Below, piece after piece: positions 81 to 4,169 of a DNA stretch of 4,325 nucleotides (within the stretch, counting starts at the first letter, position 1; every line of letters starts with the position of its first letter). This DNA comes from a virus. Its lineage: Duplodnaviria; Heunggongvirae; Uroviricota; Caudoviricetes. The notes under the pieces were generated by a model. It did no database searches, was not told the origin of the DNA, and saw nothing but the letters and a program-made list of their open reading frames with translations. The stretch is taken from the IMG/VR virus record IMGVR_UViG_2534681939_000025; one strand, given 5' to 3'. Both the position numbers and the translations under genes were made by a program.

Positions 81-300
81 CGGCTAATTCCCTCGAGTAT
101 CTGGCATCAAGTGCAGCGACATCACGCTGGCGTACCTGCATATCAGTAATTGTCACGTTCGCCAGCTTCAGCTCACTGGCTTTTTTATCGCGTTGCGCTT
201 TGTAGGTAATGGCGTTATCGCGGTAATGATTCAGCCCCAGACTAAGCACACCACAGGCTACCAGCAGGACAATAATCACCACACACAGAACACGGTTCAT
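1..300 (-). CDS. Rz: Rz i-spanin (inner-membrane spanin subunit), 5' partial: start ATG at 300, gene runs off the window at position 1
   Basis: Not in the ORF track because no stop lies in the window. Reverse-strand translation from ATG 300 gives [100 protein letters not shown]... The block [56 protein letters not shown] matches phage lambda Rz as I recall it. It has an N-terminal signal-anchor helix and a strong SD (GAGGGGGA) 1-8 nt upstream of the ATG. Confidence 0.9.
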
Positions 301-307
301 ATCCCCC

Positions 308-439
308 TCACCCCACCAGCCATGACAAAGTTAAGACGCGCCAGGCAGTGGAAAAGCAAATAGCAACCAGCATTAGTGAAAATGAAATGCCGACGATTAC
401 ACAGAGGATCTTCGCCAGCGTTATGAGCTTGTCTGACAT
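308..439 (-). CDS. Hypothetical 43-aa hydrophobic membrane peptide, translationally coupled to Rz
   Basis: ATG at 439 preceded by SD AGAGGA (6 nt spacer). Translation [43 protein letters not shown] is almost entirely one or two transmembrane helices. Stop TGA at 308-310 sits inside the Rz ribosome-binding site, 8 nt before the Rz ATG. Not in the ORF track (below its size cut-off); no family recognised. Confidence 0.45.
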
Positions 440-451
440 GCTTAATCCTCT

Positions 452-634
452 TCACGATTTCAACGCAATGACCAGTTTTGCCAGCCCATACAGCATCGGA
501 GACACAGCAATACCGACCGCCACCCACTTAATAGCAAAAGCCAGCGCTCTGCTGACGTCATCAGTTACAGGCGCTTTCAGTTCAAGGCCGTTTTTCATAG
601 TCAATCTCAACAGAATTCGTTTATACTTTCCCAT
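452..634 (-). CDS. Hypothetical 60-aa small membrane protein (basic N-terminus, one C-terminal TM helix)
   Basis: Internal ATG at 634 of track ORF 452..712; the track's upstream extension would translate through the terminator hairpin, so 634 is the more likely start. SD AGGGAGAA 1-8 nt upstream of the ATG. Translation MGKYKRILLRLTMKNGLELKAPVTDDVSRALAFAIKWVAVGIAVSPMLYGLAKLVIALKS. Stop TGA at 452-454 overlaps the SD of the next ORF (start 439). Contains rare codons (AGA, CGA) typical of acquired genes. Confidence 0.45.
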   Translation of the reverse strand: MGKYKRILLRLTMKNGLELKAPVTDDVSRALAFAIKWVAVGIAVSPMLYGLAKLVIALKS

Positions 635-667
635 GTTCTCCCTTGCCTTACTCAAGGTCAGAAACAC

Positions 668-706
668 AAAACCCCGTTTGCGGCCAACAAACGGGGTTTT
701 ACTTTT
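668..706. terminator. Bidirectional rho-independent terminator hairpin between endolysin and the downstream small ORFs
   Basis: Perfect 9-bp stem CCCCGTTTG (672-680) / CAAACGGGG (688-696) with a 7-nt loop, flanked by AAAA (668-671) and TTTT (697-700). On the plus strand it is followed by TTTTACTTTTATT, on the minus strand by TTTTGTGTTTC. Confidence 0.6.
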
Positions 707-789
707 ATTCACTTAGTTTTTGCCAGTTCGCAGGATTTCGTGTTATCCGCCAGTGTGAGCAAACCGCATTTTTCAGCAAAATATTCTGC

Positions 790-1323
790 TTATCTGTCAA
801 TTCCCCAGCACGCCAGCGCGCTCTCCTGGTCACGCCGTGAAACCTGACCGTAGCAGTTGTTTGAGCGAATACGGCAGTCTCTGCCACCGTCCTTAATCCA
901 CCAGCGAATCGCCTCACACGCACCTTTGCGATCTCCTGCATTAATCCGTCTGTAAAACGTCGACGGGAAACACTTACCGGGACCAATGTTGTACGGACAG
1001 AATGACGCGATCCCCGCTTTCTGGGGTTCGGTCAGCGGTACTTTAATATTGCGCTCCACCCACTCCAGCGCCTTATCACGTTCAATGGCGTTAACCTGGT
1101 CGCATTTTTCCTTCGACAACTTCATGCCCGGAACGACAGGTTTACCATCCACCAGGATGGCACCGCGGCAGATGGTCCAGATACCCGCACCATCACGGTA
1201 TGCCGTGGTGTGGTTACCTTCTTTTTCGTCAAGAAACTGGTCGAGGATTTCAGGCGCAGACGCACCTGCACCAATCAGCGCCAGAACGGCAGCCGACAGG
1301 CCGTATCTGATTTTTGCGTTCAT
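790..1323 (-). CDS. R: Phage endolysin, glycoside hydrolase family 24 lysozyme with N-terminal signal-anchor-release (SAR) domain, 177 aa
   Basis: Track ORF 790..1323. Catalytic-region motif EG....Y.D..G.WT.C.G (KEGNHTTAYRDGAGIWTICRGA) and RRINAGDRKGACEAIRWW resemble phage 21 R21 and T4-type lysozymes as I recall them. N-terminus MNAKIRYGLSAAVLALIGAGASAPEIL is a Gly/Ala-rich weakly hydrophobic helix typical of SAR endolysins. Lies downstream of a pinholin gene and upstream of Rz. Confidence 0.92.
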   Translation of the reverse strand: MNAKIRYGLSAAVLALIGAGASAPEILDQFLDEKEGNHTTAYRDGAGIWTICRGAILVDGKPVVPGMKLSKEKCDQVNAIERDKALEWVERNIKVPLTEPQKAGIASFCPYNIGPGKCFPSTFYRRINAGDRKGACEAIRWWIKDGGRDCRIRSNNCYGQVSRRDQESALACWGIDR

Positions 1324-1373
1324 GGATATTTATCAGGGTTTATCGATTTCAAATCCCTGGATATGTTAAGTCT

Positions 1374-1652
1374 TCAGGCCAGCGGTGGAGTCTTCAGAGA
1401 ACCCGTAATTATTCCCGGTAGTTTTCCTCTGTAGGTTATCAACACATCCTGCGCCTCTAAAATTACGGGGCGCTTTTCCGGCAACGGACCATCCCCTTCA
1501 CATAACCCGGCAGCAACATCCATGAAAAACTGCTTCGCCTGCTTTTTCGCCTCAGCTTCGTAAAACTCCAGCGTGGCACCTTCAGTACGGTCAAGACTAA
1601 TCGCCACATCTGGCAACAACAGTGACGGATACCCACCAATTTCCAGTGCCAC
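1374..1652 (-). CDS. Hypothetical acidic soluble protein (92 codons from GTG) between holin and endolysin; start uncertain
   Basis: Track ORF 1374..1652, whose first codon is GTG, not ATG. It fills the 400-bp gap between holin stop and endolysin start. It is in the same frame as the holin, and the 22 codons between the holin TAA (1722-1724) and this GTG contain no stop and no canonical start. SD is weak. Some lambdoid prophages carry a small ORF in this position (I recall ydfR in Qin), but homology cannot be confirmed here. Confidence 0.35.
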   Translation of the reverse strand: MALEIGGYPSLLLPDVAISLDRTEGATLEFYEAEAKKQAKQFFMDVAAGLCEGDGPLPEKRPVILEAQDVLITYRGKLPGIITGSLKTPPLA

Positions 1653-1721
1653 AGTAACAGTAATCTTATCCGGGTAATTATTTATCCCTTTAACACCCAG
1701 TTCGTATTTTTCTTCATCGCT

Positions 1722-1997
1722 TTACTCCCCCCGCGCCGCCTTACGACGGTCCTCTCTGATTTTGAAATACAGGTTAGTCAGATACGTCAGCAGGCCAAAC
1801 AGCAGACTCCCCAGCACACCGATCGCCACCCACTGGGACGGAGAGACTTTGTCCAGCAGCTGCAGTAACCAGTATCCCGTCCCCACCGCTGACGTGGTGT
1901 ATGACACACCTGTTGTGATTTTTTTCCATCTGATGTATGTCTCCGTCACCGCCGACAGAAAATGAAAGTAAAGGAAACAAAAAGCCGCCAGTGTCAC
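1722..1997 (-). CDS. S: Class II pinholin, phage 21 S21-like; conserved region 1722-1925, N-terminus uncertain (expected ATG at 1929 is out of frame)
   Basis: Track ORF 1722..1997 (GTG start). The C-terminal 64 aa [67 protein letters not shown] match the S21 pinholin nearly residue for residue over the second TM helix and C-terminal tail (from memory). Two TM helices, and it is paired with a SAR endolysin. The track's N-terminal extension ([24 protein letters not shown]) has no SD. Confidence 0.85.
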
Positions 1998-2182
1998 CCA
2001 CTGACGGCCAACGCCGGGAGCCGTGATTATGGCATTCAGGCTCTGCTAAAAATGCCAGATAACATTCCGGCCTCCCCCGATTCAGGTTATAAATGACACA
2101 ATATCTTGACAACATCCGTCACTGTCTGTCAGAAAATGTACTGCCATATAGAAGCAACATGTGAAGTACATCTATCCTTTTG

Positions 2183-2224
2183 AGCCAGCACCTCTCCACC
2201 GAAAGTCAGTGCTGGCTGTTTTTT
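2183..2224 (+). terminator. Plus-strand terminator-like hairpin (copy A): stem AGCCAGCAC/GTGCTGGCT, 17-nt loop, then GTTTTTT
   Basis: Stem 2183-2191 pairs with 2209-2217, followed by T6. The 17-nt loop is larger than in typical intrinsic terminators, so function is uncertain. The T-run is on the plus strand only. Confidence 0.35.
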
Positions 2225-2331
2225 CCTTAATAAAGCATCTGTAACTGAAACAATCCGCATATTGATAATATATTGACAGGCATCATTGCTGTCTGTGAAA
2301 AATAAGTCTCTACAAACATATAAGGCCTTTT

Positions 2332-2369
2332 AGCCAGCGTCTTCTTTCAGGTCAGTCGCTGGCTTTTTT
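2332..2369 (+). terminator. Plus-strand terminator-like hairpin (copy B): stem AGCCAGCG/CGCTGGCT, 17-nt loop, then TTTTT; abuts the esterase stop codon
   Basis: Stem 2332-2339 pairs with 2357-2364, followed by T5 (2365-2369). Lies directly 3' of the esterase stop (2371-2373) but is oriented as a terminator for plus-strand (antisense) transcription. Confidence 0.35.
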
Positions 2370-2370
2370 A

Positions 2371-3855
2371 TTATGCTGCCGGTGCATTTATCTCCAGCAC
2401 CAGACTTTCTATCTCAACGCCATACGCTGCATTTTTTGTAACATCCGTCAGCGTCAGCGCATTCAGTCCCAGTGTCATACTGTCTTTTATAACCTGGAAT
2501 GCCGGGCCAGCCACTCCATTCAGTTTCGGAGTAACCGTGGCACTGCCGGCGGTGAACACCAGCTCCAGCGTCTGCCAGTCGTTACCGTAATCGCCGAACT
2601 CCCCCAGCTTCGTGTTTCCGGCTTTCCTGTGATGCATCAGATTCACTCTGCCGTCAGTGGTCTGAGTGAAGTACGACATCAGGAACGGATTACCGGTACC
2701 CGTCATCGCCACACCATCAGGAACGGGAGCATCCGTATACAGATAAATCCCCAGCCCGAACTGATTGTTGGTCAGTGCGCCTGACAGGCGGAACTTACAG
2801 GTCAGTCTGCCGCCCTGTGTCAGCAGGGTAATTGCGTCATCCACCGGATGCGTCAGGGACCAGGTTTTATTGCTCTGCTTGGTGATCTTAAATACACCAT
2901 CTGACAACTGAATTCCGCCATCCTTAATGCTCCAGCCCTGCGCAGCAGCCTCTCCGGCTGCCGGCAGCAGGGAGATTGTGCGAACGGACGTATCTGCAGA
3001 CGGACCTGATGGCGTGTTGCCGCCGGGCGAGGGTTTGATTTCCGGTGCCTTACCACTGATGAAGGCTGAGGTGCGCCCGGCTGCGTTCAGAATAGCGGTT
3101 GCCAGACGATCCGGAATAATGCTCCTGCGCGCCCATGAACTGAAATGTGTCGGGCGGTTTGATGATACCTGGTTTCCATTCGTTCTCGATGCCGCACCGT
3201 AATATCCTGATGCCGGAATATCCGGATCTTCTGCCGGCGCGTTAGTGGCGGTATTGACGCCGTTACCGTCTGTCATGAAGGGCACAAAATAAACGCCCTC
3301 ACTCTCCCTGTTTTTATACCCGCCGTACACGGTGTCGTACTGGGTAGCGTATGTATTTTTCCAGTAATACGTCGTGTCACCACAAATCCACGGCACATCT
3401 GCAGCACTGCCACCATGGCACTGCGCGTTAAACACGGAGAGGTCAGCCCTCGGATGATTCAGCGTACTCATATCCTGCACATCATGCAGACAGTGGTCAG
3501 CCGGAATAATATCGTTATATCTGCAGGCAGCCCCGCCCGGCGTCACTGTACTGCGGCGCGCCAGCTGTTTAATGCGCGGATCCGGAGCATCGTATGAATC
3601 CGGCAGCGGAAGCCCTTCACCGTAAGCCATGGCATTGGACTGCCCGGCCAGTACGATGACGTAGTACCAATCCGGCTCAGATGAACCACCGACCACCACA
3701 TCACCTTCAACAGCAACCGCCTGCATCAGGGTATAAGGCGTAATGGCAACCGGACCACCAAACGGCTGCCAGCCCTCTTTCAGTTTGTGTGTCAGCTTTT
3801 CCGCAAGGTCTGACGGCGACGCCGCCCTGACAACATCATAATGTTTAATCGACAT
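2371..3855 (-). CDS. nanS-p: Prophage-encoded sialate O-acetylesterase, NanS-p-like (SGNH/SASA-type esterase with N-terminal DUF1737-like region and C-terminal probable carbohydrate-binding domain), 494 aa
   Basis: Track ORF 2371..3855; ATG at 3855 with SD GGGAG 7 nt upstream. GQSN esterase serine motif in VLAGQSNAMAYGEG near residue 70. The N-terminal 50 aa resemble the DUF1737 region of prophage NanS-p proteins (from memory). Position immediately upstream of the holin matches where nanS-p sits in Stx-type and other lambdoid prophages. Confidence 0.85.
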   Translation of the reverse strand: MSIKHYDVVRAASPSDLAEKLTHKLKEGWQPFGGPVAITPYTLMQAVAVEGDVVVGGSSEPDWYYVIVLAGQSNAMAYGEGLPLPDSYDAPDPRIKQLARRSTVTPGGAACRYNDIIPADHCLHDVQDMSTLNHPRADLSVFNAQCHGGSAADVPWICGDTTYYWKNTYATQYDTVYGGYKNRESEGVYFVPFMTDGNGVNTATNAPAEDPDIPASGYYGAASRTNGNQVSSNRPTHFSSWARRSIIPDRLATAILNAAGRTSAFISGKAPEIKPSPGGNTPSGPSADTSVRTISLLPAAGEAAAQGWSIKDGGIQLSDGVFKITKQSNKTWSLTHPVDDAITLLTQGGRLTCKFRLSGALTNNQFGLGIYLYTDAPVPDGVAMTGTGNPFLMSYFTQTTDGRVNLMHHRKAGNTKLGEFGDYGNDWQTLELVFTAGSATVTPKLNGVAGPAFQVIKDSMTLGLNALTLTDVTKNAAYGVEIESLVLEINAPAA

Positions 3856-3968: not shown

Positions 3969-4169
3969 GAAAATAAAGGGATAACGATGATAGTTTGAGA
4001 AAAACAGAAATAACACTTTTGTGGCAAAGCATGGTGCCGGGTGCCTCCCGGTGAATTCAGTATCAGCACCTGAATCCGCGATTACCCCATATACCTGCTT
4101 GCTGATCGCCCCACCGCACAGGGGGATTCACCATGCAGAAGTGTTTTTAATAAACAGCAAACAAAAAAA

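Follow-up and report, generated by a model that had tools for sequence, protein, structure and literature searches.

The lysis region of a lambdoid prophage in the draft genome of Escherichia coli DEC3F carries a pinholin gene that, as deposited, has no intact reading frame from the ATG served by a Shine-Dalgarno sequence; the frame is intact only if the run of adenines following this ATG is A6. Comparison with finished genomes indicates that the extra A is probably a homopolymer-length miscall, i.e., a sequencing or assembly artefact, in the DEC3F draft contig.

Gene organization of the window

The window, i.e., the whole stretch of DNA that was analysed, is 4,325 bp long and makes up all of AIFJ01000044.1, a contig in the draft genome assembly of E. 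coli DEC3F (GCA_000249355.2, 2012); the encoded proteins bear ECDEC3F locus tags, which identify the strain. The minus strand represents the late/lysis region of a lambdoid (Stx-phage-like) prophage and features, from upstream to downstream, the following elements.

2371-3855, minus strand: nanS-p type esterase gene, 494 aa
440 bp between the esterase and holin genes: intergenic region
1975-2009, minus strand: intrinsic terminator, hairpin (2009-1983) plus U-tract, upstream of the holin gene; -20.6 kcal/mol, z = -4.05
1941-1944, minus strand: GGAG Shine-Dalgarno sequence, 11 nt 5' of the pinholin ATG
1927-1929, minus strand: pinholin ATG, +1 out of frame with the body of the gene; holin start in H-19B, 434, YYZ-2008 and Stx1_14040
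1919-1925, minus strand: A7 homopolymer (T7 on the plus strand) straight after ATG-G; A6 in all normal homologues
1722-1929, minus strand: phage-21-type (S21-type class II) holin/pinholin gene, PF04971; 208 nt as deposited, 207 nt (68 aa plus stop) with A6
1374-1717, minus strand: ydfR/DUF1327 gene, PF07041; ATG at 1717-1715
1707-1711, minus strand: A5 run in codons 3-4 of ydfR; A6 in finished genomes (T6 to T5 on the plus strand)
790-1323, minus strand: gene for the endolysin partner of the pinholin, 177 aa, intact; PF00959, 87.6 bits
between the endolysin and Rz genes, minus strand: two small ORFs
ATG at 300, minus strand: Rz homologue, start only; PF03245

An identical gene order is annotated in Stx1 phages, in H-19B and YYZ-2008, and in many prophages of E. 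coli O157, O145 and O103. The endolysin has a Gly/Ala-rich, hydrophobic N-terminus (MNAKIRYGLSAAVLALIGAGASAP) that looks typical of SAR endolysins.

The holin region is a repeated sequence; among the complete E. coli records, strains that carry it have a median of 4 copies per genome. Repeat copies may have been collapsed in the DEC3F assembly, and the contig may be a mosaic or a consensus of several prophage copies. No near-identical finished copy of the DEC3F prophage was recovered; full-length matches reach 98.5% identity at best, and contigs encoding an identical endolysin are 98-99% identical to the window.

The esterase gene lacks 366 bp, in frame, compared with the usual 616-aa gene, and the deletion junction maps near position 3440. 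Forms of the same 494-aa length occur in O157 493/89, TW06591 and a few other genomes, and the variant looks real; the exact protein is on record for one contig only, AIFJ01000044.1. Upstream of the esterase, positions 3993-4165 (minus strand) clearly match the STnc100 sRNA (Rfam RF02076), scoring 100.9 bits where the gathering score is 47. The plus strand of the esterase-holin interval contains two related units (approximately 2085-2226 and 2227-2370), both featuring a TTGACA box, a common CTGTCTGT motif and a terminator-like hairpin followed by a T-run. Both units run opposite to the late transcript and may encode small antisense RNAs; no family was matched by an Rfam search of positions 1700-2400, the units located there included. 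The second unit is missing in the closest O157 genomes, as a segment of 144 bp (2220-2363).

Reading frame of the deposited pinholin gene

The only ATG with a usable Shine-Dalgarno sequence upstream of the pinholin body (1929-1927; GGAG at 1944-1941, 11-nt spacer) is +1 off the holin frame and is followed by a G and seven A's, seen as T7 at 1919-1925 on the plus strand. These observations agree with a first-pass annotation made from the sequence alone, which had also anticipated the products of the two frames described below. The spacing between ribosome-binding site and holin start annotated in phage 434 is the same 11 nt. Translation from the ATG at 1929 proceeds for 51 codons unrelated to the holin and then meets a stop; the resulting peptide has no Pfam match. 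The pinholin body is located in the other frame, within a 91-aa mechanical ORF (1722-1997) that matches the PF04971 profile (Bacteriophage P21 holin S) with 110.7 bits. Removing one A restores an in-frame 68-aa protein starting with MEKITTG. This corrected protein scores 112.5 bits, covers positions 1-63 of the 64 in the PF04971 profile, and is found, residue for residue, on at least 998 public contigs. Counting the A-run against phage homologues, a check that had been proposed along with the annotation, gave A6 and a 207-nt coding sequence in all four sequences aligned (Stx1_14040, H-19B, 434 and YYZ-2008).

In-frame GTG codons are present at 1997 and 1949, and neither is preceded by a Shine-Dalgarno sequence of the GGAG/AGGA type, as had been noted earlier. 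GTG1997 falls inside the loop of the terminator hairpin, and the hairpin at 2009-1983 is annotated as a terminator in phage 434. The 91-aa ORF was considered as a real, N-terminally extended holin and rejected, as its first 16 codons overlap the terminator hairpin and the U-tract, which are non-coding in all homologues. Exact look-ups of the shifted products of 91, 113 and 75 aa returned no matches. The DEC3F assembly itself annotates the holin as a fragment of 54 aa, a product found on 112 contigs. The call is uninformative on the A7 tract because, in nine out of nine other places listed, the gene abuts a contig end, starting at most 18 bases from it.

Single-base changes in neighbouring homopolymers

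The window was aligned to the closest finished genomes, i.e., O157 493/89, O157:H16 98-3133 and PV15-279. The alignment revealed approximately 57 substitutions, one 3-bp indel, two large indels and three consistent single-base indels. The latter affect the ydfR run, the holin A7 tract and the tail of the terminator; all three are in homopolymers and all are located within a 270-bp segment (1707-1975). Only 1 substitution is found within 1264-1996, versus 56 in the rest of the window. The window contains 30 homopolymers of at least 5 bases, and the remaining comparable ones match the reference.

The A5 run of ydfR is a second frameshift in the DEC3F contig, 212 bp downstream of the holin A7 tract. 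In the deposited frame, ydfR is closed by a stop after 11 codons; with A6, it encodes a 114-aa protein that matches DUF1327 (PF07041) with 152.6 bits. No A5 run was present among the 488 copies in 416 complete records. This frameshift, which the first-pass annotation had missed, is the most telling clue. In the terminator, the U-tract reads T5-G-T3 in the window and T5/6-G-T4/5 in every other copy. The change from T4 to T3 maps to 1975-1977 (A4 to A3 on the plus strand), and the T3 state is absent from 699 finished records (2,835 places).

Three indels, each near-unique, against one substitution look unlike divergence between prophages and like homopolymer miscalling. An alternative is that DEC3F harbours a decaying lambdoid prophage whose pinholin was put out of action by a real A6 to A7 slippage mutation. 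The normal start would then yield no functional holin, and the prophage would be unable to time lysis. Prophage lysis genes are common targets of domestication, which favours this alternative, and the clustering of the changes speaks against an artefact, as three errors in 270 bp and none in the other 4 kb or so are unlike uniformly distributed error. A real mutation would nonetheless require three independent homopolymer mutations in 270 bp accompanied by a single substitution, and finished copies, compared in their hundreds to thousands, show each of the three resulting states either never or almost never. Moreover, neither an IS nor any other lesion is present in the contig, and the nanS-p, endolysin and Rz frames next to the two broken genes are intact. 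We consider a real inactivating mutation in DEC3F rather unlikely.

The same homopolymers in other assemblies

A truncated 92-aa YdfR product is also encoded by a DEC3D contig (AIFH01000016.1), which derives from the same project and carries a different prophage. Over 3,537 aligned positions, the sole difference between this contig and EDL933 is the ydfR A6 to A5 change; this change aside, the contig is equally identical to hundreds of other finished genomes. The occurrence of the same ydfR change on a different prophage, as the only difference from EDL933, also argues against a real mutation in DEC3F.

Other large assemblies featuring a truncated YdfR have fragmented neighbouring genes, such as a split esterase or a split lysozyme. 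Most of these assemblies have either A5 or A7 at the ydfR run, and one has A5 at the holin run. Among other contigs of the same IMG series, the holin region of DEC8D (IMG taxon 2526164689; protein EHW27574.1) features A5, G3 and an extra T, and a contig of IMG 2526164691 combines a holin A5 tract with three nearby insertions. As judged by sequence comparison, the holin and ydfR runs are spots where error-prone assemblies fail, and contigs of the DEC project contain indel errors.

Frequency of the A7 tract

Complete RefSeq E. coli records were surveyed with a 70-bp query spanning the tract. A7 was found in one record (OY754853) out of 697, which together contain 2,822 copies of the region; the tract is one base shorter, A6, in the other 2,821. 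A7 was not found in any of 28 phage records, nor in any of 24 metagenome contigs examined with a gapped pattern scan, all of which have A6. In IMG/VR, a sample of 119 copies retrieved with the gapped pattern included 116 A6 and 3 A5 tracts, and the exact A7 pattern occurs in one contig of the whole collection. Tracts of all three lengths (A5, A6 and A7) thus occur among public assemblies.

Broken holins account for 5 of the 119 IMG/VR copies (approximately 4%). They have varied causes and are found beyond DEC genomes as well, a frequency that lends some weight to a real frameshift. Enrichment of broken holins in the DEC project was considered and not relied on, as it is weak in the IMG/VR sample: 1 of 13 DEC-series copies is broken (another has A5 and is cut off by a contig end), versus 4 of about 106 others.

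The survey also bears on the view that the A7 tract is functional, either by allowing a low, regulated level of holin synthesis through +1 ribosomal slippage (tRNA-Lys at AAA-A) or transcriptional slippage, or by acting as a phase-variable lysis switch. The wild-type MEKITTG protein would be restored by a +1 shift at AAA-A or by an mRNA lacking one A, and the length of the tract does vary in public assemblies. However, the out-of-frame state is not conserved, being found in 1 of 2,822 complete-genome copies, in 0 of 28 phages and in 0 of 24 metagenome contigs, and a programmed frameshift or a maintained switch is therefore unsupported. A run of seven A's is, in addition, on the short side for RNA polymerase to slip efficiently or for phase variation at high frequency, and most of the length variants come from assemblies with other indel errors. 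A frameshift-stimulating hairpin 3' of the A-run was looked for and rejected. The hairpin located 8 nt downstream (-7.4 kcal/mol, z = -0.6) is no better than those of shuffled sequences, and its sequence is identical in three of four A6 phage homologues, which need no shift. A functional role of the tract is, on these data, barely credible.

A7 alleles in other strains

A7 tracts are present on at least four other sequence backgrounds. CP088028.1 and AKLI01000012.1 have a common A7 allele, with 18 differences over 5.9 kb, and in both an IS3-family element is inserted just upstream of the holin gene. A second A7 allele is found in both ABMOOF010000084.1 and AASRRY010000110.1, between which there is no difference over 2,597 bp; the longer locus of this pair contains an IS110-family transposase gene upstream of the holin gene. 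In these two lineages, the IS insertions cut the cassette off from upstream transcription. IS-linked A7 loci are L020 (1473-2686), L021 (1185-2398) and L022 (270-1466); in L022, the stop codon of the endolysin gene is lost, and the predicted protein is 205 aa long.

The sequences suggest that lysis cassettes located behind IS insertions are decaying, and that decaying prophages do undergo genuine slippage from A6 to A7, because independent assemblies agree in the same disrupted context. The range of backgrounds carrying A7, and its presence behind IS insertions in independent assemblies of two lineages, are points on the side of a real frameshift. The DEC3F allele is not derived from the CP088028.1 allele, as the two differ at 1996 and 1824, positions that flank the tract.

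Several A7 alleles are annotated as an intact 70-aa "class II holin family protein" (WP_050489768.1 and WP_050545993.1). The annotated products start at an ATC codon, in the PGAP style, and begin with MRWKKITTG. Loci annotated in this way are L009 (2557-2769), L020 (3001-3213) and L021-L023. The ATC start hides the A7 frameshift.

In a contig of E. coli 97.0246 (L008, 336-400), A7 is accompanied by a G4 to G3 change 50 nt downstream. The double change restores the frame, and the predicted 68-aa holin has its first 16 residues scrambled; it represents either two errors or a compensated allele.

A further possibility is that the A6 tract following the pinholin start is a natural slippage hot-spot that turns lysis off (A7 or A5) recurrently, and perhaps reversibly, in the resident lambdoid prophages of pathogenic E. 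coli, DEC3F carrying a genuine off-state that lets through some wild-type holin via a +1 slip at AAA-A. We give this possibility a very small chance. Were A7 real, the normal ATG would yield the 51-aa nonsense peptide, and the wild-type protein would be remade either by tRNA-Lys slipping +1, from one AAA to the AAA that overlaps it, or by the loss of an A from the transcript. Slippage at such sites occurs at a low level only.

Origin of the extra adenine

Taken together, the comparisons argue for the origin of all three homopolymer changes of the DEC3F contig in sequencing or assembly and not in the cell. The artefact appears several-fold to tens-fold likelier than a real mutation, because the homopolymer error rate of the contig is a few percent, a figure that presumes that ydfR A5 and terminator T3 are both errors, and real A7 makes up well under 1% of copies. 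The first-pass annotation had left three readings side by side. A sequencing error is favoured by the clustered, near-unique homopolymer changes and by the DEC3D contig; phase variation and slippage are unsupported, given the single A7 among 2,822 copies; prophage decay is possible in DEC3F and looks true of a few other strains, in which A7 lies behind IS insertions.

If the extra A is a miscall, the real locus would contain A6 and encode an ordinary phage-21-type pinholin of 68 aa, with an intact ydfR, the gene for an endolysin with a SAR-like N-terminus, and Rz downstream. The holin would act as in its relatives, building up in the inner membrane and forming small pores that collapse the proton motive force; the collapse would in turn free the membrane-tethered endolysin. 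Nothing new on lysis would follow, the locus being a standard cassette of a pinholin and a SAR-type endolysin. If the frameshift is real, DEC3F would merely have another lysis-defective cryptic prophage.

Frameshifts in short homopolymers of old draft contigs, or of contigs assembled from long reads only, should be compared with finished copies before a pseudogene or a recoding event is called, and finding another frameshift close by is an inexpensive warning. Such frameshifts can be masked by annotation pipelines, as illustrated by the A7 holins called as 70-aa proteins from an ATC codon.

Comparison with known systems

Programmed frameshift and phase-variable loci (prfB +1, dnaX -1 and contingency loci) resemble the DEC3F locus in having an A-run at which a one-base shift restores the frame. 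In contrast to these loci, the out-of-frame state is unconserved here, the A-run is short and no stimulatory structure reaches significance.

Antiholin forms are a second term of comparison. In phage 21, S forms small pores, and the resulting membrane depolarisation activates the SAR endolysin; the antiholin S21-71 differs from the holin S21-68 by extra positive charge at its N-terminus (PMC9636201). The dual-start motif (S21-71/S21-68) is absent from the window, in which the sequence reads GAC ATA CAT CAG ATG, with ATA in place of the upstream ATG. The 71-aa relatives (MYQMEK or MHRMEK at the N-terminus) have the upstream ATG, whereas the DEC3F allele class has only the 68-aa start; the closest phages likewise annotate 68 aa only. 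The net charge computed for the residues preceding the first transmembrane segment is +2 or +3 for products initiated at GTG1949 or at the ATC used by PGAP (MRWKK), versus 0 for the wild type. Such products would therefore resemble the antiholin forms (S21-71 and the inactive S21IRS variant) in carrying extra N-terminal positive charge and, if A7 is real, are expected to be inactive or inhibitory. They differ from antiholins in that GTG1949 and ATC are hypothetical starts with no visible Shine-Dalgarno sequence, in a region that is non-coding in all homologues.

The DEC3F contig shares with assemblies affected by homopolymer errors +1/-1 changes in runs of 4-7 bases, which break conserved genes and are absent or nearly absent in finished genomes. 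The changes also recur at the same runs in assemblies with fragmented genes and in a sister assembly. The three DEC3F changes differ in being more clustered than uniform error, and they are classed with this group by comparison alone.

By sequence, context and architecture, the gene belongs to the S21/PF04971 pinholin family; nothing at the locus is new. The family includes phage 21 S, H-19B S, 933W S and the phage 434 holin. Three differences set the DEC3F locus apart from S21-type pinholin cassettes, i.e., the deposited start, which is out of frame by one A, the ATA in place of the upstream ATG of the dual start, and the presence of ydfR between the holin and endolysin genes. The corrected protein matches PF04971 end to end, and an endolysin with a SAR-like N-terminus and Rz are encoded downstream. 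In the Kyte-Doolittle profile of the corrected holin, a weak first segment (approximately residues 8-25, maximum 0.8) precedes a strong second one (approximately residues 33-50, up to 2.25). The holin regions of H-19B, 434, YYZ-2008 and the Stx1 phage are 95-97.5% identical to the window at the DNA level, with the same ribosome-binding site spacing and a 207-nt coding sequence.
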